In this document: one piece after another, positions 2,400-19,515 of the stretch
How positions within the stretch are numbered: position 1 is the stretch's first letter
Layout of the letters: the number at the start of each line of letters is the position of its first letter
Source: an archaeon
GTDB taxonomy: Archaea; Iainarchaeota; Iainarchaeia; Iainarchaeales; CSSED10-239
DNA length: 32,000 nt
Direction of reading: 5' to 3'
NCBI GenBank assembly: GCA_035400625.1
Contig: DAOMZT010000001.1
Coordinates: 240,001 to 272,000 of the forward strand
Position numbers and translations under genes: made by a program
The notes under the pieces: generated by a model
The model's input: only the letters and a program-made list of their open reading frames with translations
What the model was told of the DNA's origin: nothing
Database searches by the model: none

Positions 2400-3884
2400 T
2401 TATGGTGTTCCTTCAGAATTTGAAGACAGTGATCTTTCATAAGTCACGGTTAGCACGCCACTGCTAACCTCGTCCAATATTGCAATTGCCTTTATTGTTG
2501 TTGTTTCTGTAATTTTTATCTCTCTATCATATATAGTAGATCTATCTGTAGGTGTGCTTTCATCTAAGGTGTAATATATTACAGCATTGCTTGTGTTTGT
2601 TTTTAATGTAACGGTTATAGGGTCTCTAAAATTAAAATTTGTAGGGTCTGCAGTAGGTGTTGCTACCTCTGTGTCTTTTAAAGTATAATCAAAAGATGAA
2701 ATTTGGCTTTTATTATCTAATATGGCAATTGCTTTAATATTACATCGATCTGTACACACCTCATTAAATGGTATTGGTGTTTGATAAAAGTTACTCCCAT
2801 CAGGATCGGTTCCATCAGTTGTGTAATAAATTCTTGCTTCTGGAGTTGTTGTGCTTAAAGTCAACGATGCATCTCTAGAAACAAACCCTGATGTTGGCTC
2901 AGCAATCGGGTCAGCAACATGTCCTACAACAGTATATTCTGCTTTTTGCACACCGCTATTAATTCTATCGCCATATGCAATTGCTTTTATTCTTGTAAAT
3001 TTTTCCACAATTCTAATGTCGTCTTCGTAAAGTGTAGAATTCCTCCCATTTCTTTCAGGGTTTGATCCATTAAGAGTATACCAGATTTCATCAGTAGAAG
3101 GTTCAGTGATTATTTTTATTTGTTCTCCTATACCCTCTATAAAACCAGCAGATGGTCTGAAAGTCAAATTTATGTGTGTTGGAGGTGTTATCGTATAAAT
3201 TTCAGTAAGTATGGCGCTATCTGTCATGCCTGCTTTACAAGCAATTGCTTTTAGAGTTGTTGTTTGAGTGATTGATATTGGAGTAGTGTAGGTTGTTGAA
3301 GAGGTGTTTGGATTATTACCATCAGTAGTGTAATAGATTGTAGCGTCCTGTGGATTCGTTTTTAAATTTACACTTTGTGGCTCTGAGTAAGTATCTCCTT
3401 TTGGTGTTGCAGTAGGCTTTTCAACTTGTCCTGTGCCAGGTGGCGGGATCATGCTAGAAACATCCCATCTATATGTATTTGACTTTGCTGATCCGCCATC
3501 TAGGGTGGTAAGAATATAAGCAGAATGGGGTCCTATACCTAATTGGCTATCTAGCGTAATTCTGTTATTTTTAATTTCTTTTCTATTATCTATATCATCA
3601 TCAATTACTAATTCGTTATTTCCATCACTAAAACTTTGAAAAAGAACATCACAATTTATACTTACACAAGCAACAGAATGAAGAACAGCAGGTATTACAG
3701 TCTTTGACATGGTTATTGCTGAGCTGGCGCTTTTTTCAGTAGATTGTTTAGAACTAGAACCTATCCCTACAATTATGACAATTACAATTGTTGCAAGTAA
3801 TACTGCTCCACCAAACAACAACAATGTTTCAATTGAGCCTTGCCCTTTTTTCTTATTTTTATTTTTTAGAGTGTTCTTTTTCAT
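2400..3884 (-). CDS. Class III signal peptide (type IV pilin-like) protein with four tandem chitobiase/hexosaminidase-C-terminal-like (CHB_HEX_C / Fn3_assoc-like) repeats; putative pilus adhesin
   Basis: The N-terminus MKKNTLKNKNKKKG|QGSIETLLLFGGAVLLATIVIV fits the QxSxExxxL motif followed by a hydrophobic helix. Residues about 60-100 are paralogous to the pilin at 15361. There are four repeats of about 70-80 aa (aa about 160-483, nt about 2436-3407), each with an IYYT(T/L)DG..P ... (L/I)KAIA signature. Several N-x-S/T sequons are present. Confidence 0.8.
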   Translation of the reverse strand: MKKNTLKNKNKKKGQGSIETLLLFGGAVLLATIVIVIIVGIGSSSKQSTEKSASSAITMSKTVIPAVLHSVACVSINCDVLFQSFSDGNNELVIDDDIDNRKEIKNNRITLDSQLGIGPHSAYILTTLDGGSAKSNTYRWDVSSMIPPPGTGQVEKPTATPKGDTYSEPQSVNLKTNPQDATIYYTTDGNNPNTSSTTYTTPISITQTTTLKAIACKAGMTDSAILTEIYTITPPTHINLTFRPSAGFIEGIGEQIKIITEPSTDEIWYTLNGSNPERNGRNSTLYEDDIRIVEKFTRIKAIAYGDRINSGVQKAEYTVVGHVADPIAEPTSGFVSRDASLTLSTTTPEARIYYTTDGTDPDGSNFYQTPIPFNEVCTDRCNIKAIAILDNKSQISSFDYTLKDTEVATPTADPTNFNFRDPITVTLKTNTSNAVIYYTLDESTPTDRSTIYDREIKITETTTIKAIAILDEVSSGVLTVTYERSLSSNSEGTP

Positions 3885-4067
3885 AATATTTTATATACAT
3901 AGAATATATTTTAAATGCTATCTTTATAAAGATAAGAACAAATCAATCTCTTAGTGTTTTTGTTTATCTATAATTGCTCTTCCTGCAAAATAAAAATCCC
4001 ATCTTAATTGATAACAAGCTTTTTAAAATGTTATTATTTTATTTAAAATATAAGGGGTAGATTATTT
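3885..4067. promoter_or_regulatory. Divergent AT-rich promoter region, call based on position only
   Basis: This is the only non-coding DNA between two divergent genes. TATA-like TTTATAAAG and TTTAAAATATAT lie on the minus strand upstream of the adhesin ATG. On the plus strand, TTTAAAATATAAGGGG lies 10-25 nt before the 4068 ATG, which suggests a short-leader or leaderless transcript. No experimental support. Confidence 0.3.
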
Positions 4068-4946
4068 ATGGCAAAACCAATGAGATATAGACCAATAGGG
4101 ATGAAAGCTTCAAGAAGATTAATTAACCTGAAAGCACCAGGAAAATTAATGGTCACGAAAACCTCAAGAAGATTAGTAGGGGCGAAATCATTAGTAAAAG
4201 GTGCGAAATCTCCAGGAAAGAAACCAATAGGCGTGAAAGTCCCAGATGTGAAAGTACAACCAAATAGATTGATAGATGCGAGAACACTAAGAAAACCAAA
4301 ATCACAAAAAACCCCCAAAGGAACTATAGGTCATCAGCCAGAAAGAAACATTAATATTTCTGCTTTCATTAGATCAATGAATGAAGTAACTGGTTCTAGA
4401 TTTACAAGTGGTACAAAGATTGAAGATGTAAGAAGAACATTTAAGAAATTAGATGCAGGTAAAAGATTTCCAGAAACAAAAATAAATGTTGTTAAAAAAT
4501 ATTTAAATAATGGCTATTTACTAAATGAAATCCAAAGGTCCCCTGAAAAAGCCAGAGAGGTAAAAAGACAACTTTCAGCAGTAGGAGTTGATGCAAGACA
4601 CATCGTTGCAACAAATATAAATCACCCTGTCTTTAGATTGTTGTTATTAGATTTTTCAAGGGCAGAAATTGAATCTGCTTTAAGAAACAGAACCCTCAGA
4701 ACAAATTACGAAAGCCAATTAAATAGCATAATAGATAATGTTTGCAGTTCCAAAACAATTGACTTATTAGATTCACGTAATTTGCCAGCTACTAGTGCAA
4801 TGGCCAAAAATGCATTTATTAATGCAGTAAAAAATGGCTATAAAGCCGAGATTATCTCGCGAATAAGGAATGGAAGAATTAACATCCCTGAAGCACGAAA
4901 AAAGCAATTAATCCAACAAATAATAAAAATACAACCAGTTAATTAA
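4068..4946 (+). CDS. Hypothetical highly basic protein with an N-terminal K/R/P/G repeat tail and three helical repeats
   Basis: 292 aa with an ATG start preceded by AAGGGGT. The N-terminal 85 aa contain imperfect repeats: RPIGMK/KPIGVK, ASRRLI/TSRRLV and LKAPGK/AKSPGK. The C-terminal part has three modules of about 45 aa with an (N)GY/DFS...EI...(L/I)R.. pattern. No family was recognised. Confidence 0.6.
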   Translation: MAKPMRYRPIGMKASRRLINLKAPGKLMVTKTSRRLVGAKSLVKGAKSPGKKPIGVKVPDVKVQPNRLIDARTLRKPKSQKTPKGTIGHQPERNINISAFIRSMNEVTGSRFTSGTKIEDVRRTFKKLDAGKRFPETKINVVKKYLNNGYLLNEIQRSPEKAREVKRQLSAVGVDARHIVATNINHPVFRLLLLDFSRAEIESALRNRTLRTNYESQLNSIIDNVCSSKTIDLLDSRNLPATSAMAKNAFINAVKNGYKAEIISRIRNGRINIPEARKKQLIQQIIKIQPVN

Positions 4947-11135: not shown

Positions 11136-12890
11136 TTGGCATCATATCTAGATGAACTAAAGGCACAGATGGAAAAATCTGAAAAGCCAACCAAGAAAGT
11201 AGATGCAGATAAACAAGAGCCCTTAAAAACAGAGATAAAAACAGAAGAGCCAAAATCACAACCAGTGCCTGAACCAAAGCCAAAAGAACAGCCAAAGCTT
11301 GATAATCTTAAAGACGCATTTAGTTCTGTTTCTCAGGAATTAAACAAAGTCGCACCTAAACAATCTCAAGAATCTTTAAAGTCTTTAATGGGAGACATAA
11401 AAGATGAAAAAGCAGCAGATGCTTTAATCGCTAAATGGGAAAGAACAGGAACGCTTATTACTAAATATGGCGAGACTGAAGTTTATAGAGTCCCAGATGA
11501 GCCATTACTCTATTATAAAACAAACATCCCAAAACCATCACCTAGTCAAAAATTAATAATAAACACTTTAAAAGAAGCAACGACAAGACTTGTTTCTACT
11601 GATCCTTATAAAATAAGAGACCCAAAACAAAGACAAAATATTTATTATCAAAAGATTTTGGAAATCTTAGAGAATGCTCCAGAGATAAATGTCCCAAAAC
11701 ATTTGTTTGATTTCTATGCTAAAGCAGTTGTTACTGAAATGGTAGGATATGGAATAATAGATACTTTGATAAATGATAATAAGCTTGAAGAAATAATGAT
11801 AATAGGCCCAAAAAAGCCAGTATATATCTATCACAGAGATTATGGAATGATGTATACAAACATTATTTTCTATTCTGATGATGAAATACAAGACATCATT
11901 GATAAAATTGCAAGAATACTAGGCAGAAGAGTAGATATTTCCAATCCTTTGCTTGATGCTAGACTTCCTGATGGCTCTCGTGTTAATGCAACTATTCCTC
12001 CAGCATCCATTGACGGTTCAACAATAACTATTAGAAAGTTTAGGGCTGATCCTTATACCATAGTAGACTTAATTAATTTTGGAACAGTCAATTTAGAAGT
12101 TGCTGCATTTCTCTGGATGGCTGTTGAAGGACTTGGTGCAAAGCCTGCAAACATTTTAATATCTGGTGGAACTGGTTCTGGTAAAACCACTTTTCTTAAT
12201 GTTCTTGCAAACTTTATTCCTGATTCAAGCAGAGTTCTAACTATTGAAGACACTGCAGAATTAAAATTGCCAATCAAACACATTATTCGTTTTGAAGGAA
12301 AGCCTCCTGGTCTAGAAGGAACAGGAGAATTGACCCTTGAAATTCTTGTTAAAAACACATTAAGAATGAGGCCTGACAGAATAATAGTTGGTGAAATTAG
12401 ACATCATGAGGCAAGCACTTTATTTACTGCAATGAACACTGGTCACGACGGGTGTATGGGTACAATCCACGCAAACTCAGCAAGAGAAACTCTTGTTAGA
12501 ATCACCTCTCCGCCAATGGACGTTCCAATGCTAATGCTTGCAGGTCTTGATTTCATTATTGTTGAAAAAAGAATGAACACTTCAAGAGGGCTAGTCAGAA
12601 GAATTGTAGAAATTGCAGAAATTACAGGAGTATTTGAAAATAATCCACAAGCAAGTATAATCTTTAGATGGAATCCTCAAACAGACAATCTTGAAAGAAC
12701 AAAAGAGCCAATAAAGTTCTTTGAGATAATTAAAACATATACTAAATATGGAGATGCAGAAATAAAACGCATTTTAGAAGAAAGGATAAACCTTATAAAT
12801 GATTTAGTTAAAAATAATATAAGAAGCATAAACGAAGTATCTAAAGCAATACAAGAAGTATACACAAATAATGCTAAAAAAAATGAGTGA
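11136..12890 (+). CDS. Type II/IV secretion-family ATPase (FlaI/PilB/TadA/EpdL-like) of a type IV filament system
   Basis: 584 aa. Walker A SGGTGSGKTT, Walker B RPDRIIVGEIR and His-box TGHDGCMGTIHAN are present. The proposed start is TTG at 11136 with GGTGA 7 nt upstream. The first in-frame ATG is at 11169. The first 100 aa or so are a K/E/P-rich low-complexity extension. Confidence 0.9.
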   Translation: MASYLDELKAQMEKSEKPTKKVDADKQEPLKTEIKTEEPKSQPVPEPKPKEQPKLDNLKDAFSSVSQELNKVAPKQSQESLKSLMGDIKDEKAADALIAKWERTGTLITKYGETEVYRVPDEPLLYYKTNIPKPSPSQKLIINTLKEATTRLVSTDPYKIRDPKQRQNIYYQKILEILENAPEINVPKHLFDFYAKAVVTEMVGYGIIDTLINDNKLEEIMIIGPKKPVYIYHRDYGMMYTNIIFYSDDEIQDIIDKIARILGRRVDISNPLLDARLPDGSRVNATIPPASIDGSTITIRKFRADPYTIVDLINFGTVNLEVAAFLWMAVEGLGAKPANILISGGTGSGKTTFLNVLANFIPDSSRVLTIEDTAELKLPIKHIIRFEGKPPGLEGTGELTLEILVKNTLRMRPDRIIVGEIRHHEASTLFTAMNTGHDGCMGTIHANSARETLVRITSPPMDVPMLMLAGLDFIIVEKRMNTSRGLVRRIVEIAEITGVFENNPQASIIFRWNPQTDNLERTKEPIKFFEIIKTYTKYGDAEIKRILEERINLINDLVKNNIRSINEVSKAIQEVYTNNAKKNE

Positions 12891-12898
12891 TTTAGAAA

Positions 12899-14047
12899 AT
12901 GCCAGAAGAAGATAAGAGACTTAAGATTCTAAAGAAAGAGTTAGATAAAGATAACTCTGAAGCACCAAAAGTAGATCTTGATGCTGTACAAAACATAGTT
13001 TCTAAGATTAAAGATAAAGATCGTGCAAAAGGAGTATCTGGTAATATTTCTGAAACACACATGAAAGAACTTAGAGATATAATCTCTGAAGGTAAACTTG
13101 CTAAACTTAATGTTGATACTGAGGCCAAGCTTTTAGCAAATTCTACCTCAGAACTAGATAAAGGCGCAGTAAAGATTTACAAGGCAGTTCCTGGTTTTAT
13201 TAATTATATTGTAAAATCCATAATCAAGAAAAGTATAGGAAGAAAGATTGCATTTTATTTGTATTCTGCAGATATTAAAAAAACTCTTGTTCAACACCTT
13301 GTTCTATCTGTAATTTATTCTTTACTTGTGACTTTTTTTATTGGAATATTAACTCTTGGAATAATTGCTATCATTAACCCGTTGTTTTTGATAATTTGGC
13401 CGTTTATTGTGATTTTTATATTTTTAATGGCTGTTGGCGGGTTTGCATATCTTGTTCCAATGCAAAAAGCAAAGACTAGGGGAGTAATGATTGATACTGA
13501 ACTACCGTATGTTCTAAGACACATTTCTACAGAGTTACAGGCAGGTATTGGTTTGTATAAAACCTTGCAATCAGTTGCAAAGAACGATTACGGAGTTCTT
13601 TCCCAAGAGATGTCAAGAACAATAATGGAAATTGAAAACGGAACAGACACAAAAACAGCATTAAGGCACATGGCATTAAGAAGCCAATCAAAGAGTTTTA
13701 ATATTGCAATATTTCATATTGTTAGAACATTAAATACAGGTGGAAATCTTTCACAAAGTATTGATAGTGTTGCAGACTCGGTTTCTTTTGATTTACTTGA
13801 AGCATCAAAGCAGTTCGGAGAAAAAATGAATTTCTTTGGTATTATTTTTATTTTTGTTGCTATTGTTTTGCCTGTATTTTTGGCAATTTTAAGTGCAATT
13901 GCAAATGCACCAATTGGGCAAGGCGGAGAGCTTTTCCTTCCAGGGATATTAACTCCAACATTGCTTGCAGTTGTTTATGTTGTTGTAATGCCTGCTATAT
14001 TTGTATTTATAGCATATTACATTAAGATGATAGAACCAAAAACGTGA
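12899..14047 (+). CDS. T2SSF-domain platform protein (TadB/TadC/EpdJ-K-like), single domain
   Basis: 382 aa. It has a charged N-terminal region of about 100 aa, then TM segments, then one T2SSF-like cytoplasmic domain (LPYVLRHISTELQAGIGLYKTLQSVA...GTDTKTALRHMALR...GGNLSQSID), then C-terminal TM segments. Confidence 0.85.
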   Translation: MPEEDKRLKILKKELDKDNSEAPKVDLDAVQNIVSKIKDKDRAKGVSGNISETHMKELRDIISEGKLAKLNVDTEAKLLANSTSELDKGAVKIYKAVPGFINYIVKSIIKKSIGRKIAFYLYSADIKKTLVQHLVLSVIYSLLVTFFIGILTLGIIAIINPLFLIIWPFIVIFIFLMAVGGFAYLVPMQKAKTRGVMIDTELPYVLRHISTELQAGIGLYKTLQSVAKNDYGVLSQEMSRTIMEIENGTDTKTALRHMALRSQSKSFNIAIFHIVRTLNTGGNLSQSIDSVADSVSFDLLEASKQFGEKMNFFGIIFIFVAIVLPVFLAILSAIANAPIGQGGELFLPGILTPTLLAVVYVVVMPAIFVFIAYYIKMIEPKT

Positions 14048-14056
14048 TAGAAGAAA

Positions 14057-14962
14057 ATGGGAAAATTAAAAGAGTTGATGGATAGATACCAGATTTATCT
14101 ATATTCACAAAAACTAAAGATAAAAACCTCAACATGGTTTGCATTAGTCATAATTGTTTCATTATTAATTGGTGTTCTTGCGTTTTTGATAAATGCTAGG
14201 GTTGGTATTTTGCTTTTTGCTATAATTTTAGATCTTGGTTTAGGTATGCCATTTTATTTGTATTTTAAAAATCTTGATGAGATAGAGAAGTATTGGCCAG
14301 AAGCACTTAGGTTGATTGCTGACACCATGAAATCAGGATCGTCTCTTGACTATGCTTTAAGAGAAGCAAGTTCTGCAGACTTTGGGCCTCTTTCAAAAGA
14401 GTTTGATGAGGTTATTAGAAGACTTGAGATGGGGGACACAATGTCTCAGTCCTTAGAGCATATGGCCCTAAGAATAGAATCTAAGATTGTTAGAAGAACA
14501 GTTACTTTAATTCAAGAGTGTTTAAAGACAGGTGCTCAGCTTGCTGAGGTTCTTGAAGAAATAGCAAACGACACAAAGCAGATGTTTAGGATCAAAAAGG
14601 AAAGAGAAACAAAGACAATGCTACAAGTTATTTTCATATTTGCTGCAGGTGCTGTGATTGCTCCTTTTATTTTTGGTCTGACAAACGTTATTACTCAGTT
14701 TTTAACAACAATATCTTCAACTGCTGGTGTTGCAACAGAGAGTGCTTTGGCAACTGCCACTGCTACTCAAAAGTCATTAGCTTTTTTACTTGATGTTTAT
14801 TTATTGATAGAGGTTGCAGCTGCTGCTGTTATTATTAGTTTGATGAGACAAGGAAAGTTTACAAAAGCTGTTGTCTTCTTTCCAGTAATGGTTATTGTTT
14901 CTTTTATAATATATATGGTATCACAAGCAGTGATATCTGGAATACTAATAGAGGCTATATAA
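14057..14962 (+). CDS. Second T2SSF-domain platform protein (TadB/TadC/EpdJ-K-like), single domain
   Basis: 301 aa. It has N-terminal TM segments, one T2SSF-like domain (WPEALRLIADTMKSGSSLDYALREA...GDTMSQSLEHMALR...TGAQLAEVLEEIA) and C-terminal TM segments. Confidence 0.85.
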   Translation: MGKLKELMDRYQIYLYSQKLKIKTSTWFALVIIVSLLIGVLAFLINARVGILLFAIILDLGLGMPFYLYFKNLDEIEKYWPEALRLIADTMKSGSSLDYALREASSADFGPLSKEFDEVIRRLEMGDTMSQSLEHMALRIESKIVRRTVTLIQECLKTGAQLAEVLEEIANDTKQMFRIKKERETKTMLQVIFIFAAGAVIAPFIFGLTNVITQFLTTISSTAGVATESALATATATQKSLAFLLDVYLLIEVAAAAVIISLMRQGKFTKAVVFFPVMVIVSFIIYMVSQAVISGILIEAI

Positions 14963-14965
14963 AAT

Positions 14966-15145
14966 ATGAAACTAAAAGAACTATTAAAAGATAAGAGAGG
15001 GCAAGTAAGCCTAGAAGTGTTATTAATTGTTGGTATTGTTGTATTAGCTGCTCTTTTGGTTGGCTATTACCTTAAGCAGACAGCTATGAATCATAACACC
15101 ACAATATTTGGCTATCTTAAAAAGGTAATTTCTGGCACTAACTAG
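14966..15145 (+). CDS. Small class III signal peptide (pilin-like) protein of 59 aa, absent from the supplied ORF track
   Basis: My own translation gives MKLKELLKDKRG|QVSLEVLLIVGIVVLAALLVGYYLKQTAMNHNTTIFGYLKKVISGTN*. The ATG at 14966 lies 3 nt after the platform gene's stop, and the TAG is at 15143-15145. The sequence shows the QxSxE motif followed by a hydrophobic helix. Confidence 0.7.
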   Translation: MKLKELLKDKRGQVSLEVLLIVGIVVLAALLVGYYLKQTAMNHNTTIFGYLKKVISGTN

Positions 15146-15310
15146 CCACACACAAAGCAAGAAATAAGCCACATAGCAATGAGCTTTAAGGGGTCTTTTA
15201 GTTCGGCTAACTAAACAGAAAGGTATATAAATATAATCTATAACAATAATAAATAATTATTTTACAAATAAAATAAATAAAAGATATATTTAAGCAATTA
15301 AATATATACC

Positions 15311-15337
15311 AAACCAAAAAAACAAAAACAAAAAAAC
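15311..15337 (+). promoter_or_regulatory. CA-rich leader motif upstream of pilin gene 1
   Basis: AAACCAAAAAAACAAAAACAAAAAAAC lies just downstream of TATA-like TTAAATATATA (about 15297-15308). It is followed by GGAGG (15349-15353), 7 nt before the ATG. A near-identical motif recurs at 15850-15875 upstream of pilin gene 2. Confidence 0.4.
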
Positions 15338-15360
15338 TAAAATTAAACGGAGGAATAAAA

Positions 15361-15789
15361 ATGAAGTTTAATAAAAAAGGACAGGGTGCACTTGAATACC
15401 TATTATTGATCGGTGGTGCAGTATTAATTGCTGTTATCGTCATCGCATTACTTGTAGGTATGGGTTCATCAAGTAAAAAAAATGCATCTCAAGGCGGAGA
15501 CAGAATCAACCAAGCAATTTCAGGAACTGCAATTGCATCAGTTCTCCAATCAGCAAATTGTGATGGTAATGTACTAAAGATTAGCTATACACACAATGGA
15601 GGAGATGTAAATTTAGTTATTGATGATACTATACAAAATATAACCGCAGACTCAACAACAAGCTCTTACTCAGGAGAGAATGCTGGTGCATGTGAAGTAA
15701 ATAAACAACACAAAATTGCATTACATACAACCGCTTCATCTGGAGCAACAGCATATTCAAATGCAATTTATGTTACTAGAAAGTCATAA
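15361..15789 (+). CDS. Type IV pilin-like protein (class III signal peptide), candidate major pilin
   Basis: 142 aa with N-terminus MKFNKKG|QGALEYLLLIGGAVLIAVIVIALLVG. It has its own AT-rich upstream region, a strong GGAGG site and a hairpin plus T-tract terminator. Two Cys residues and an N-I-T sequon lie in the globular part. Confidence 0.85.
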   Translation: MKFNKKGQGALEYLLLIGGAVLIAVIVIALLVGMGSSSKKNASQGGDRINQAISGTAIASVLQSANCDGNVLKISYTHNGGDVNLVIDDTIQNITADSTTSSYSGENAGACEVNKQHKIALHTTASSGATAYSNAIYVTRKS

Positions 15790-15793
15790 ATTC

Positions 15794-15838
15794 AAAATCC
15801 TGTTTTAAAACAGGATTTTTTTGATTTTTTTTCTTTTT
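15794..15838 (+). terminator. Hairpin plus T-tract terminator after pilin gene 1
   Basis: A perfect palindrome AAAATCCTGTTTT/AAAACAGGATTTT (15794-15819) is followed immediately by TTTGTTTTTTTTCTTTTT. Confidence 0.6.
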
Positions 15839-15849
15839 AAAAACAAAAT

Positions 15850-15875
15850 AAACCAAAACACAAAAACAAAAACAC
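15850..15875 (+). promoter_or_regulatory. CA-rich leader motif upstream of pilin gene 2, a duplicate of 15311-15337
   Basis: AAACCAAAACACAAAAACAAAAACAC matches the motif before pilin gene 1 almost base for base. It is preceded by TTTTTAAAAA. No GGAGG/GGTGA lies before the ATG at 15893. Confidence 0.4.
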
Positions 15876-15892
15876 AATAATTCAATGATAAA

Positions 15893-16345
15893 ATGAGATT
15901 TAAACAAAAAGGACAAGGAGCATTGGAATATTTAATTCTTATAGGCGCAGCAATACTTGTTGCGGTCATTGTTGTTAGCGTTGTTCTTGGAACAAGCACA
16001 AGCGGAAGACAAAGTAGCGAAGAAACCACAAGGTCTTATCAAGAACTAGTAACAAACACAATAATACCACCAACAATCATTAGTGTTACTTGTATTGATG
16101 ATAAAAATGCAACATATGTTATTAATCCTTCTGTAACTAAAGGAGTAACAGAATATTGTGTAGTTGTAAATGGAGATGTTAACATAGACAATTGTGTAGA
16201 GCCAACAAGTAACAACAAAGTGTTAATAACTAATATAAGCCCTGCATTAACATCAAAAACAAAATACAATATGTCATTGGTTGCTAAAAAGGGCAATGCA
16301 TATTCTGCACCAACACTACCAGCACCAGATTGTATAGTCCCATAA
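15893..16345 (+). CDS. Type IV pilin-like protein (class III signal peptide), paralog of 15361
   Basis: 150 aa with N-terminus MRFKQKG|QGALEYLILIGAAILVAVIVVSVVLG. Four Cys residues and several N-x-S/T sequons are present. Confidence 0.85.
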   Translation: MRFKQKGQGALEYLILIGAAILVAVIVVSVVLGTSTSGRQSSEETTRSYQELVTNTIIPPTIISVTCIDDKNATYVINPSVTKGVTEYCVVVNGDVNIDNCVEPTSNNKVLITNISPALTSKTKYNMSLVAKKGNAYSAPTLPAPDCIVP

Positions 16346-16374
16346 ATAATTATAATTTAGAATAAGATAAAAAT

Positions 16375-16557
16375 ATGTTTAGAAAATTACTAGAAGATAA
16401 AAAAGCACAAGTTTCTTTAGAATATCTAGTAATAATTGTTTTTGGAGTAATGCTTGTAATCATTACAGGCCTTATGATAATAAACCTAAATATTCTAGTA
16501 TCTCTTGCTAAAGCAAAAATACTAAACTATAGAGATAATATCTTAACATCTTTATAA
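16375..16557 (+). CDS. Small class III signal peptide (minor pilin-like) protein
   Basis: 60 aa with N-terminus MFRKLLEDKKA|QVSLEYLVIIVFGVMLVIITGLMII. It resembles the 59-aa ORF at 14966 in size and layout. Confidence 0.7.
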   Translation: MFRKLLEDKKAQVSLEYLVIIVFGVMLVIITGLMIINLNILVSLAKAKILNYRDNILTSL

Positions 16558-16576: not shown

Positions 16577-17680
16577 ATGTTTTATGTAACAATTATAATG
16601 CTTTTTTTTGTATTCTTGTTTTTAGTGCTTGCTTCTTTTTCTGATATCAAAACCAGAACTATTTCAAACAAACTAATTTTGTTTTTTCTGGTTTTTGGAA
16701 TATCATACAACATTACTTTTGCTCTAGTTTCTAAAAACTATAACTTATTATTAACATTATTATATTCAATAATTATCTCATTAGTTGTATTTATTACTCT
16801 CTGGCAATTAGGAGTAATAGCAGGAGGAGACACAAAGCTATTTATTGCGATCTCTGCAATAATCCCAACAATGCAAAGCACTCTTGGTTTGTTTGATATT
16901 GGCTTAGGCAAATTAGAAACATTGCCTATCTTTTCTCTTATCTTGTTTGTGGCAAGTGCATTTATGGTTCTGCCATGGATTCTAATCTATTCTAAATATC
17001 TATTATTAAAAAAAAAGCAATATAGAGAGCTACTACTAAACAAGATGTTTTCTAAAAAAAACCTTGTGTTGCTTCTTGATTCAATATTAGTATTGATTTT
17101 AATTAGTCTTTTGTTGTTGTTATTTAATATAACTAACTTTATTCTAATCTTTACAATCTCCTTTGCCTTTACATTTCTGATATTTAGAATAAAAACAAAA
17201 AGATATTTTTACTATATAGTCTTGGCCTTAAACCTAGTTCTTTTAGCAATATTGTTTTTCTTAAACAAGCTAACAAGCGAACTATTTATTATGTTATTAA
17301 ATATCTCGGGCATTGTTGTTTTGATTTCATTGTTGTTTGTATATTTAAGATATGTAAAAGAAAAAGTGCTAATTGAGAAAAAGAAAATAGCACAACTAAA
17401 AGAAGGAGATCTTCCAGTATACAATTACTATTATATAAATAAAAAAGTAATACAAAAAAAACCAAACATCTTTAACAAAATAAAAGAAATTGCTTTAGGA
17501 ACATATTATAAGGGGTTAAAGATAGATTCTAGCAAAGCCTGTGGCTTATCCAAGAAAGACATAACTTTTTTAAAAGATATGTATAACAATAAATTAGTGA
17601 ACAACACAATATATTTGAGGAAGACACTGGCCTTTACTCCAGCTGTGCTTCTTGCATTTTTGTTGTTAATAATATTTTAA
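16577..17680 (+). CDS. Archaeal A24-family prepilin/preflagellin peptidase (FlaK/PibD/EppA-like) with a long C-terminal extension
   Basis: 367 aa. The first catalytic Asp is in ASFSD23IKTRTISN. The second is in the GxGD-type motif GVIAGGD85TKLFIAI. The protein is polytopic. Residues about 150-367 add extra TM segments and a K/N-rich soluble insert before a final TM (LAFTPAVLLAFLLLIIF). Confidence 0.8.
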   Translation: MFYVTIIMLFFVFLFLVLASFSDIKTRTISNKLILFFLVFGISYNITFALVSKNYNLLLTLLYSIIISLVVFITLWQLGVIAGGDTKLFIAISAIIPTMQSTLGLFDIGLGKLETLPIFSLILFVASAFMVLPWILIYSKYLLLKKKQYRELLLNKMFSKKNLVLLLDSILVLILISLLLLLFNITNFILIFTISFAFTFLIFRIKTKRYFYYIVLALNLVLLAILFFLNKLTSELFIMLLNISGIVVLISLLFVYLRYVKEKVLIEKKKIAQLKEGDLPVYNYYYINKKVIQKKPNIFNKIKEIALGTYYKGLKIDSSKACGLSKKDITFLKDMYNNKLVNNTIYLRKTLAFTPAVLLAFLLLIIF

Positions 17681-17692
17681 ATGTGACAATTT

Positions 17693-18154
17693 ATGAACAG
17701 AAAAGGACAACTTTCAATAGAGATAATAGTACTACTTGCAATATTTTTATTGTTCTTTCAAGCAATGATCCTGCCATCTATTGAATTTTCCGAAAATGTA
17801 TTACAAGACACTCAAGCAATTGTTGTTTCTAAAAAGAACATTGAAGATCTAGCTATTAATATTGAACAATTGGCATCCCAAGACGGCTATGGAAAAAAGC
17901 AATATTACTTTTACTTACCAAGAAACACGAAATTAGATTGTAATGTTGCTGCAAAGAAATTAAATTATAACATAACGATATCAAAGCAACAGCCGTTGCC
18001 ACCAGGTTGTAATAATAGTGTTTGCGAATTCCAAAGAGAGCTCTTTTTGCAAAGCCAGCAATTTGTAGATTGTAATAAAATTGGTCCTGGATTTTCAGGA
18101 ATATTAATGATAGAAAAAAAAGCAGACGGCAATATTACACTAATAAGTGAATAA
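17693..18154 (+). CDS. Class III signal peptide (pilin-like) protein
   Basis: 153 aa. MNRKG|QLSIEIIVLLAIFLLFF is an exact QxSxExxxL match. Four Cys residues lie in the globular part. Confidence 0.75.
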   Translation: MNRKGQLSIEIIVLLAIFLLFFQAMILPSIEFSENVLQDTQAIVVSKKNIEDLAINIEQLASQDGYGKKQYYFYLPRNTKLDCNVAAKKLNYNITISKQQPLPPGCNNSVCEFQRELFLQSQQFVDCNKIGPGFSGILMIEKKADGNITLISE

Positions 18155-18157
18155 ATA

Positions 18158-18508
18158 ATGAATAAAAAAGCACAGATTAGTTTGGAGTTTATAATAATTA
18201 TAAGCTTTGTATTAATCCTTACATTGTTTTTTTCAAACTCTGTGTTTGGCACAACAGACATTAACAAAGCAATTACTAAAGTCAAGCTAAGAACAATGGA
18301 TATTTTTTCAATGGAAGGATCAATTGCACAGCTTGAAAGAATAGATTATTATGTAACAGATACCAATCTACAATTGAATCTTTATATTAATAAAAACAAA
18401 GATAATATTTTACTTACAGAAGATAAATACAATATAACAATAGAAAATTTAAAGCAATCAACAAAATTTACAGATGTTAATTTAGCATTTTATTATGTTA
18501 ACGAATAA
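18158..18508 (+). CDS. Class III signal peptide (pilin-like) protein
   Basis: 116 aa with N-terminus MNKKA|QISLEFIIIISFVLILTLFF. It starts 3 nt after the previous gene. Confidence 0.75.
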   Translation: MNKKAQISLEFIIIISFVLILTLFFSNSVFGTTDINKAITKVKLRTMDIFSMEGSIAQLERIDYYVTDTNLQLNLYINKNKDNILLTEDKYNITIENLKQSTKFTDVNLAFYYVNE

Positions 18509-18520
18509 AGAGAAAATAAC

Positions 18521-19114
18521 ATGAATAGCAAATACCTATTATTTCAATTGTTTTTTATAGCAAGCATATTTGTAAGTTTATTTATTAAACAGAATCTTTT
18601 TTTAAAGATACTTTTGGTTTGTTTGCTTTTTTTATATGGCTTGTTGATTCTTCCTGAGTTTGTATATAACAGGAATAAGTTTTTGTTTATTGGCTCTGGT
18701 TTTACTATTCTTGCTATTCTTTTTGTGATTGCTGGCTATTCAACAAACATCAATTATATGATTGTTCTATCTTGTATATTGGTTGCGTTCTTTTATTCTT
18801 CAAGAGTGTTGTTTGACACTACCTTTGGCGAAGTAATAATAACCACTCCAAAAAATGTGCAAGTTAGGTTATTAGATGATTTCTACAGGCCTGGCAAGAT
18901 CTATACAATAGACACTAAAAAGAAATATCCATTAAAATCAATTGTTTCAATAAGGCTTGTTCAATCAATTTCTAGAAAACCAAAAGAAGTTATTGGCATT
19001 CTTTGTGATAACTCTAAAACTGATTTCAAAACTTCAAAAACACAAAAAAAGCCAAAGAAGGTTATAAAAACAAGAAAAACCACAAACATTTCTAGAAAGA
19101 AAAAGAAAAAATAA
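18521..19114 (+). CDS. Hypothetical membrane protein with N-terminal TM bundle, a small beta-rich C-terminal domain (NfeD-like topology?) and a K-rich tail
   Basis: 197 aa with 3-4 TM segments. A beta-rich region follows (GEVIITTPKNVQVRLLDDFYRPGKIYTIDTKKKYPLKSIVSIRL), then KTQKKPKKVIKTRKTTNISRKKKKK. The family assignment is a guess based on topology only. Confidence 0.5.
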   Translation: MNSKYLLFQLFFIASIFVSLFIKQNLFLKILLVCLLFLYGLLILPEFVYNRNKFLFIGSGFTILAILFVIAGYSTNINYMIVLSCILVAFFYSSRVLFDTTFGEVIITTPKNVQVRLLDDFYRPGKIYTIDTKKKYPLKSIVSIRLVQSISRKPKEVIGILCDNSKTDFKTSKTQKKPKKVIKTRKTTNISRKKKKK

Positions 19115-19125
19115 GACTAATAGAA

Positions 19126-19515
19126 ATGTTTGAAAAGAAATTATTCAAGATACTTATCTTTACAAGTGCCTTTGCCCTTTTGGGCATTCTAACAATTATG
19201 TATTTCTTTGAGGCATCTTTAGTTTCTATTTCTTTTCTTTTATCAGAAGATGCAAAAGTTGGTGTTTATCTTGTTTCTGGAAACCTAAAAAACATAGAAA
19301 TTAAATCAAATGTTCTTTTTTTCGAGCTTTGCGATTCTTATGATTGCATTTCAGGAGTTTATTTTAATCCCACAAACAAAACAGCAGAAAGACTAGAATA
19401 TGCAAGAGAGGCAAACCAAGAGATTACAATAAAATCCAGATTTGAGTATTATTATGGCTCTCCAGAGATTATTGCCTACAAGTTTTATTTTGATAAGTGT
19501 GGAGGTTACTCATGA
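19126..19515 (+). CDS. Membrane-anchored protein with an OB-fold-like domain
   Basis: 129 aa. One N-terminal TM segment is present (ILIFTSAFALLGILTIMYFF). It is followed by a pattern typical of OB folds (KVGVYLVSGNLKNIEIKSNVLFFELCDSYDCISGVYFNP...QEITIKSRFEYYYGSPEIIAYKF). The TGA stop overlaps the next gene's ATG (ATGA at 19512-19515). Confidence 0.55.
   Translation: MFEKKLFKILIFTSAFALLGILTIMYFFEASLVSISFLLSEDAKVGVYLVSGNLKNIEIKSNVLFFELCDSYDCISGVYFNPTNKTAERLEYAREANQEITIKSRFEYYYGSPEIIAYKFYFDKCGGYS

Follow-up and report, generated by a model that had tools for sequence, protein, structure and literature searches.

The window analysed here, a stretch of 32,000 nucleotides (nt) from contig DAOMZT010000001.1 (positions 240,001 to 272,000 of the forward strand), carries a reverse-strand gene at 2400..3884 whose 494-amino-acid (aa) product joins a class III signal and an entire pilin module to four tandem beta-sandwich domains of the CHB_HEX_C_1 type. 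We refer to this protein as the fusion. The window (G+C ~33%) is part of an archaeal chromosome and contains genes for PolD DP1/DP2, the RFC small subunit, Cdc48, a NOG1-type GTPase, TopA and DnaK/DnaJ/GrpE. Below, the fusion gene and its parts are given in the order of translation, with positions counted from the first letter of the window, together with the source of each assignment (ORF, open reading frame; AF2, AlphaFold2; pLDDT, predicted local distance difference test).

2400..3884, minus strand: whole gene, 494 aa, ATG start, modular class III signal (prepilin-like) protein (ORF list and Pfam)
3843..3884, minus strand: leader peptide MKKNTLKNKNKKKG, aa 1-14, predicted cleavage after Gly14 (PF04021 match and shared motif)
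3753..3842, minus strand: hydrophobic N-terminal alpha-1 helix of the mature pilin, aa 15-44, with Gln at +1 and Glu at +5 (AF2)
3456..3704, minus strand: globular pilin module, aa 61-143, a seven-stranded Fn3/Ig-like beta domain with invariant Cys73 and Cys78 (AF2 and alignments)
3414..3455, minus strand: Pro/Thr-rich linker, aa 144-157 (low pLDDT)
3186..3413, minus strand: beta-sandwich module R1 (CHB_HEX_C_1), aa 158-233, hypervariable in strains L094 and L095 (Pfam, AF2)
2925..3185, minus strand: beta-sandwich module R2 (CHB_HEX_C_1), aa 234-320, 67-72% nt identity in strain L093 (Pfam, AF2)
2670..2924, minus strand: beta-sandwich module R3 (CHB_HEX_C_1), aa 321-405, with a Cys377/Cys381 loop, 56-61% nt identity in strain L093 (Pfam, AF2)
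2433..2669, minus strand: distal beta-sandwich module R4 (CHB_HEX_C_1), aa 406-484, the best kept repeat among orthologs with a mean identity of 61% (Pfam, AF2)

In Pfam, CHB_HEX_C_1 (PF13290) was matched by four stretches of the protein (E = 2.4e-61, 204 bits against a cutoff of 22), and Fn3_assoc (PF13287) by four stretches overlapping these (E = 1e-55). Class_IIIsignal (PF04021) was matched at aa 12-37 with 25.7 bits, the gathering cutoff being 23.7 bits. The leader MKKNTLKNKNKKKG is followed by QGSIETLLLFGGAVLLATIVIVIIVG, i.e. a short basic leader ending in Gly or Ala precedes a hydrophobic helix of ~20-25 aa, which is the arrangement that characterizes class III signals, and the context of the predicted cleavage site (arrow) is KKKG↓QGSIE. 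The motif [KR][GA]↓Q-x-[SA]-[LI]-E is common to all seven class III ORFs of the window, the fusion included, and Q15 and E19 are invariant in 10 orthologs of the fusion. Gln at +1 and Glu at +5 were reported as features of EppA substrates in Methanococcus maripaludis (PMC3875500). A first-pass annotation, made by a model from the letters and their ORFs, had already read this N-terminus as a class III signal, and both the Pfam score and the residues at +1 and +5 bear this out, as opposed to an ordinary Sec signal or membrane anchor. The protein thus has the layout that defines modular pilins, i.e. an N-terminal pilin module (aa 1-143), a short linker (aa 144-157) and extra domains that are not specific to type IV pili (T4P), in this case four copies of CHB_HEX_C_1.

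The same annotation had placed a pilus locus about 7 kb away on the opposite strand. The Pfam scan confirmed this locus, with an A24 peptidase, and the distance from the start of the fusion gene to the start of the ATPase gene is 7.25 kb.

11136..14962, plus strand: pilus assembly core, with a T2SSE-type ATPase at 11136-12890 and T2SSF platform genes at 12899-14047 and 14057-14962 (Pfam)
14966..16557, plus strand: operon pilin genes, Flp-like of 59 aa at 14966-15145 and 60 aa at 16375-16557, globular of 142 aa at 15361-15789 and 150 aa at 15893-16345
16577..17680, plus strand: prepilin peptidase, Peptidase_A24 and Arc_PepC, with DIK and AGGDTK as candidate catalytic Asp motifs
17693..18508, plus strand: two more class III (minor pilin-like) genes, 153 aa at 17693 and 116 aa at 18158

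With an ATPase, a two-gene platform, multiple pilins and a dedicated peptidase, this locus was assigned, by gene content alone, to the Epd-type 'system 1' of archaeal type IV filaments (TFF). The platform split into two genes has been described as a hallmark of system 1, which was reported in methanogens and in DPANN archaea (bioRxiv 10.64898/2026.04.22.720090). Moreover, pilin genes of M. maripaludis are spread over at least four loci, and the major pilin is encoded away from the operon (PMC3875500). Hence, a pilin gene located 7 kb off the machinery would be ordinary for Epd-type systems. Two class III ORFs of the operon, of 59 aa (KRG↓QVSLE) and 60 aa (KKA↓QVSLE), have no globular domain and resemble the Flp-like major pilin MMP1685. 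These may be the true major subunits, in which case the 142-aa and 150-aa pilins and the pilin module of the fusion would be of minor-pilin types.

Similarity between the fusion and the globular pilins of the operon is direct. By BLASTP, fusion aa 9-100 aligned with the 142-aa pilin at 15361 with 48% identity (E = 5e-19), and aa 11-74 aligned with the 150-aa pilin at 15893 with 40% identity (E = 5e-9). In a multiple alignment, the first ~143 residues of the fusion line up collinearly with the 142-aa pilin over its full length, and the extension starts where that pilin ends. The resemblance to the 142-aa pilin that was first seen by eye is therefore real and runs along the whole pilin, which makes this a genuine pilin domain, and it extends to the 150-aa pilin as well. 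Judged by its sequence, the pilin module of the fusion is a paralog of the 142-aa pilin of the operon. The standalone 136-aa pilins P0125 and P0126 match fusion aa 11-141, i.e. the whole module, in the exhaustive search described below. Among orthologs of the fusion, Cys73 and Cys78 of the module are invariant, and conservation is 83% in the N-terminal helix, 70% in the pilin module, 58% in the linker and 51-61% in the repeats.

For structure prediction, AF2 was run on a 14-sequence alignment for the full fusion, and the pilin module was also modelled alone. The full-length model has a mean pLDDT of 82.8, with values above 90 in the four repeats, low confidence in the N-terminal helix (about aa 17-38) and values below 50 at aa 144-150 of the linker, which is predicted to be disordered. 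The four repeats form all-beta domains, and a Foldseek search of the full model against the Protein Data Bank (PDB) returned tandem arrays of immunoglobulin (Ig)-like and Fn3 domains, the top match being the Aureispira grappling hook GhpA (E = 9e-13), with further matches to contactin, Robo, gp130, cadherin and the Sap S-layer protein. Together with the Pfam result, these matches agree with the first-pass assignment of the repeats to CHB_HEX_C_1/Fn3_assoc, and the repeats have an Ig/Fn3-like beta-sandwich fold. Each repeat carries the signature (I/V)(Y/W)YT...KAIA. Since the four are mutually only 31-45% identical in protein and ~50% in DNA, they represent old duplications and not a recent tandem array. 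The pilin module modelled alone gave a seven-stranded beta domain (about aa 60-143) with pLDDT of 88-95. In Foldseek it had no match at E <= 1e-3; the best match was to Fn3 domains (E = 6.5e-3), and T4P pilins of Haloferax (8fj5, E = 0.04) and Natrinema (8gi2, E = 0.059) were matched weakly along the full length. As far as a predicted model can tell, this is suggestive of structural membership among the solved archaeal pilins.

The same annotation had also called the repeats 'carbohydrate-binding-like'. No carbohydrate-binding module (CBM) appeared among the top 50 Foldseek matches of the fusion, which are generic Ig arrays, and no CBM or lectin family matched in Pfam at E <= 1. By sequence, the repeats matched a single solved structure, 6q63 (E = 2.4e-4), which is the accessory domain of a beta-hexosaminidase of family GH20. 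In the literature searched, no report was found of carbohydrate or other ligand binding for the CHB_HEX_C_1 domain type. The label has no support beyond the name of the Pfam family.

Fusion aa 1-150 was searched exhaustively with HMMER against 1.84 billion representative proteins, which gave 146 relatives; a word-indexed search with the same segment gave only 2 proteins. Most of these relatives are standalone pilins of ~80-200 aa, and a class III signal scored in 137 of the 146. CHB_HEX_C_1 is their commonest recognisable partner domain (12/146), and the ConA-like lectin domain Laminin_G_3 is present in three. Copies of CHB_HEX_C_1 number from one to nine, with one in P0121, P0122, P0124 and P0159, two in P0208, four in P0058, six in P0210 and nine in P0202. 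In several large relatives the array is followed by something else, namely an RCC1 beta-propeller after two copies in P0221 (792 aa), a cadherin-like and a Gly-rich domain after the six copies of P0210 (970 aa), whose N-terminus scores as a class III signal, Ig_7 after the nine copies of P0202 (1433 aa), and a weak DUF1554 match after the four copies of P0058. This position between a pilin N-terminus and varying distal domains suggests that the CHB_HEX_C_1 array often acts as an extender or stalk. The genes of P0058 and P0210 have no pilus machinery adjacent to them, and that of P0210 lies near an S-layer gene.

The RCC1 propeller of P0221 recalls the beta-propeller adhesin PilY1 of bacterial T4P. 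Likewise, P0157, P0241 and P0260 are class III proteins with related N-termini that carry Laminin_G_3, the module type of Streptococcus sanguinis PilC. This suggests that grafted lectins are used on archaeal pilins too, by convergence or in common.

Full-length orthologs (P0001-P0010) have the same architecture, with 51-99% identity and lengths of 472-506 aa, and the exact 494-aa protein was found on more than 20 metagenome contigs (ENA, JGI and Logan assemblies). The gene order TopA, fusion, Cdc48 also holds in L087 (P0008), a more distant species, and in L088, where this locus has the 237-aa, single-module P0122. The versions in other genomes have four modules; the number of modules therefore changes at an orthologous locus. 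In L091 and L092, which are of a related lineage and share the overall synteny, a 339-aa class III protein with CHB_HEX_C_1 (P0159) is encoded inside the pilus operon, between genes of 146-aa and 148-aa pilins and upstream of the A24 peptidase. P0159 is collinear with the fusion, starting at the leader and reaching past the pilin module into beta-sandwich one, with 32% identity over 242 aa (E = 5e-23). Taken at the level of such alignments, this operon-embedded relative is the best evidence that fusions of this kind functionally belong to the pilus. Related genomes thus do contain pilin and CHB_HEX_C fusions, 12 among the 146 relatives, with linkage to a pilus operon in L091 and L092. When GTDB species-representative genomes were scanned with the ortholog alignment, only bacterial CHB_HEX_C_1 proteins were recovered and none covered the pilin module. 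In this GTDB-based set, no species-representative genome matched the pilin module (pattern NELVID[DK][DN]), although the lineage turns up frequently in metagenome assemblies; the set may lack the clade, or the clade's representative may have no fusion gene.

Downstream of the minor pilin genes of the window, two further plus-strand ORFs follow. Both lie directly behind the minor pilin genes. The product of the first (18521-19114), of 197 aa, crosses the membrane several times, has a Lys-rich tail and gave no Pfam match above cutoff, and the second (19126-19515) encodes a 129-aa protein for which Pfam gave only a sub-threshold OB-fold. Genes of 187 and 118 aa occupy the equivalent positions in the L091 operon. 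The products may be uncharacterised accessory components of the pilus.

Orthologs in conspecific strains are segmental mosaics. The window fusion is 95-100% identical to P0002 in R3 and only 26-50% in R1, and it is 85-90% identical to P0003 in R1 and only 26-48% in R3; such an opposite pattern cannot be generated by tree-like divergence. The flanks (TopA side and Cdc48) are 96-100% identical in nt, and 90-nt windows inside the fusion gene drop to 39-61%. The divergent parts differ by strain, being the linker and R1 in L094 and L095 (R1, 39-59% nt) and R2 and R3 in L093. On contig ERZ926538 k127_121572 (21,919 nt), the genes for T2SSE, T2SSF, RFC, a MiaB-like protein, Lrp and Cdc48 and two unnamed ORFs are 100.0% identical in nt to the window and the operon pilins are 99.5-100% identical, whereas the fusion allele (P0272) is just 80.1% identical in nt and 71.5% in aa. 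In line with this, fewer collection blocks index the exact sequence of the fusion (23) than that of the 142-aa pilin (39) or of T2SSF (49). Even with the caveat on consensus assembly that is raised below, population variation is concentrated in the fusion gene.

Diversification by a diversity-generating retroelement (DGR) was considered and rejected, as the 32-kb window has no second copy of the gene sequence and no reverse transcriptase domain was present among its scanned ORFs. DGR targets have short, adenine-specific variable regions. Divergence of whole modules (39-61% identity) is unlike such regions.

Between TopA and the fusion gene, a Lys-rich ORF of 292 aa (4068-4946, plus strand) was matched by neither Pfam nor PHROGs. 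Together with the intergenic regions at 3885-4067 and around 4947, it belongs to a segment of ~955 bp that the window-type L001-L006 possess. The segment is missing in the conspecific L093, L094, L095 and L105, as it is in L087 and L088, which are related, and the adjoining C-terminus of TopA differs as well (721 versus 732 aa). Thus, the variable island reaches beyond the fusion gene.

Several other features of the gene were scanned. Where the first-pass annotation had named a putative AT-rich promoter region belonging to the gene itself, TATA-like strings are present upstream, in a genome of ~67% A+T, and a promoter and terminator scan of the bacterial sigma-70 type, applied here to an archaeal gene, showed no enrichment (13 sites versus 9.7 +/- 2.8 expected). 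The 6 N-glycosylation sequons of the fusion are likewise not enriched over the shuffle expectation of 6.0 +/- 2.1. A match of the repeats to NCBIfam NF042962 ('DUF499_antiphage') was dismissed at 48.9 bits against a cutoff of 1200; it is likely caused by a similar beta-sandwich segment in that defence-associated protein and says nothing for a role in defence.

On balance, we consider it probable, though far from settled, that the fusion is a modular minor type IV pilin of an Epd/Tad-like ('system 1') pilus in a Diapherotrites-type (DPANN) archaeon. This reading draws on what is directly observed, namely the domain architecture, the processing motif, the pilin homology, the machinery with its peptidase, the change of module number, the operon-embedded relative and the variation among strains; that the protein is cleaved and built into the pilus, where in the filament it sits and that it has a ligand is what we infer. 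In our model, the class III signal would insert the preprotein into the membrane, and the EppA-like A24 peptidase encoded in the operon would cut after Gly14, so that the mature protein begins with Gln at +1. With its alpha-1 helix and globular pilin module, the protein would then fit into the filament that the ATPase and the platform proteins assemble, most likely at the tip or sparsely along the shaft, as proposed for bacterial modular pilins. From there, the Pro/Thr linker would project the four Ig-like CHB_HEX_C_1 domains outward over ~12-16 nm, a length estimated from typical Ig-domain dimensions. The exposed chain may serve as an interaction surface for adhesion or partner recognition, or may be shaped by virus pressure, and recombination of module-sized segments would diversify it between strains. 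The display of adhesin domains on the filament, which the first-pass annotation had put forward, would fit into this scheme.

Several points weigh against a modular minor pilin. The PF04021 score of the fusion just clears its cutoff (25.7 versus 23.7 bits), and solved archaeal pilins are matched weakly by the pilin module (Foldseek E of 0.04-0.06). The gene lies outside the operon, with housekeeping genes between, and the conserved 7-kb spacing merely mirrors overall synteny. Four bulky domains might impede packing in the filament body, and no ligand-binding site could be named in the fusion. The flanks with 100% identity come from metagenome assemblies, and may in part reflect consensus assembly of co-existing strains.

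If the four CHB_HEX_C_1 domains were lectin-like modules that bind glycans, e.g. of the chitin type or cell-wall polysaccharides, the pilus would be a carbohydrate-specific adhesin, which is compatible with a modular minor pilin. The strongly matched Pfam family is named for chitobiase and hexosaminidase C-terminal domains, the structure 6q63 belongs to a GH20 enzyme, and bacterial relatives often pair CHB_HEX_C_1 with glycoside hydrolases such as GH16. Sister class III proteins with lectin folds (Laminin_G_3 in P0157, P0241 and P0260, and a weak CBM60 match in P0176) also indicate that glycan-binding modular pilins seem to exist in this protein neighbourhood. However, the literature gave no report of carbohydrate binding by this domain type, and the best Foldseek matches are generic Ig/Fn3 arrays of stalks and cell-adhesion molecules instead of CBMs. 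In bacteria, CHB_HEX_C_1 is joined promiscuously with SLH, LRR, FG-GAP, Kelch and Big_2 domains, as is typical of spacer modules, and in P0210, P0221, P0202 and P0058 the array sits between the N-terminus and a different distal domain. Moreover, the conserved aromatics of the repeats (IYYT, KAIA) are placed in predicted beta strands. We therefore regard specific glycan binding by the repeats as doubtful.

Class III signals are known on archaeal surface proteins that are not pilins. The fusion may use its signal just for export and anchoring, and would then be an envelope or coat protein, located on the cell or in a short pseudopilus, in the manner of the Sulfolobus bindosome, whose sugar-binding proteins have class III signals. 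The location of the gene outside the pilus operon agrees with this, as do P0058 and P0210, which resemble the fusion in N-terminus and CHB_HEX_C_1 array and are encoded away from pilus machinery, the latter near an S-layer gene. For M. maripaludis, a non-pilin protein with a class III signal is mentioned, and piliation there does not require MMP0600, MMP0601 and MMP0709, which are larger pilin-like proteins (PMC3875500). Nevertheless, the fusion retains the entire globular pilin module, which is more constrained than the rest of the protein and is paralogous to the operon pilins, and its collinear homolog P0159 lies among pilin genes within the L091 operon; a role restricted to export and anchoring thus appears unlikely. 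Finally, because the source is metagenomic and the variability might be mistaken for chimeric assembly, an artefact of assembly, a pseudogene in decay or an accidental joining of two ORFs had to be considered. The exact sequence recurs on more than 20 independent contigs, the intact orthologs (51-99% identity) keep architecture and synteny, and AF2 folds all domains with high confidence, so that any explanation of this kind is highly improbable.

Returning to the modular minor pilin, a tentative extension, to which we give rather little weight, is that the Ig-like array is a strain-specific recognition determinant at the pilus tip, for the choice of partner or host, or a viral receptor, and is diversified by module-sized recombination. 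If so, while the pilus is otherwise invariant, the array would parallel, in an archaeon, the antigenic variation of pilins or the host-range cassettes of tail fibres. Dependence on contact with other cells is presumed for most DPANN archaea, and few of the molecules that make and specify this contact are known. The fusion, with its conserved pilin module and its Ig-like chain as the one strongly variable element of an otherwise identical neighbourhood, is a concrete and testable candidate for such a molecule.

The first-pass annotation had described this architecture as uncommon for archaeal pili, which was overstated in view of modular pilins in bacteria (PMC8179133), archaeal Ig-like minor pilins (PMC4858521) and class III proteins with binding domains noted in system 1 (bioRxiv 10.64898/2026.04.22.720090). 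Well-known bacterial examples are S. sanguinis PilB (pilin and vWA) and PilC (pilin and ConA-like lectin) and CofB of enterotoxigenic Escherichia coli (pilin, beta-repeat and beta-sandwich) (PMC8179133, PMC9934059). Like these, the fusion consists of a pilin module, a short linker and non-pilin modules, a design that in bacteria goes with minor, low-abundance subunits, a proposed location at the tip and adhesion; extra domains in multiple copies are known as well, e.g. in a 12-repeat Falkowbacteria pilin (PMC8179133). The published survey of modular pilins gathered more than 1,200 proteins in 264 architectures via the bacterial IPR012902 motif, and its main text does not mention archaea (PMC8179133). 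Unlike the bacterial proteins, the fusion has an archaeal class III signal (PF04021, Gln at +1) in place of the IPR012902 N-methylation motif, and therefore falls outside that survey. Its pilin module is all-beta and Ig-like, as in archaeal pilins, and its extra part is an array of four CHB_HEX_C_1 domains with a putative ligand role, for which mosaicism of modules is documented at the strain level. The modular-pilin design, for which experimental documentation is so far bacterial only, would thereby be extended to archaeal Epd-type pili.

The Epd pili of M. maripaludis involve the EppA peptidase, the minor pilins EpdA-C, the major pilin MMP1685 and the larger pilin-like MMP0600/0601/0709 (PMC3875500). 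The system of the window resembles them in the ATPase with two platform genes, the dedicated A24 peptidase, Gln at +1 and Glu at +5, the very short Flp-like pilins beside globular pilins of ~130-156 aa, and the presence of pilin genes at several loci. It differs in its Diapherotrites-like host and in that the ATPase and platform genes are contiguous with those of the pilins and the peptidase, which form separate loci in M. maripaludis. No description of a 494-aa pilin with a CHB_HEX_C_1 array was found in the literature on the M. maripaludis Epd system.

A further comparison is offered by arCOG02911, comprising all-beta Ig-like proteins of variable length (about 250-550 aa) in euryarchaeal T4P, for which a minor-pilin role was hypothesised (Makarova et al. 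2016, PMC4858521). Compared by description only, the two are alike in being FlaFind-positive, long, beta-rich, Ig-like and prone to duplication and change of length, whereas the fusion family has a recognisable small pilin module and CHB_HEX_C_1 units defined by Pfam. With Aureispira GhpA (PDB 9fly and related entries), the fusion shares a chain of small beta-sandwiches forming an extended extracellular stalk (Foldseek E down to 9e-13). This is a resemblance of fold class only, since identity is just 12-16% and TM-scores are ~0.2, the latter because domain orientations are free, and GhpA is not a pilin and takes another secretion route. The family of pilin and CHB_HEX_C_1 fusions and its strain mosaicism at the level of modules appear to be undescribed in the searchable literature. 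Nevertheless, the fusion belongs to a known design, that of bacterial modular pilins and long Ig-like archaeal minor pilins, and is not a new kind of system.

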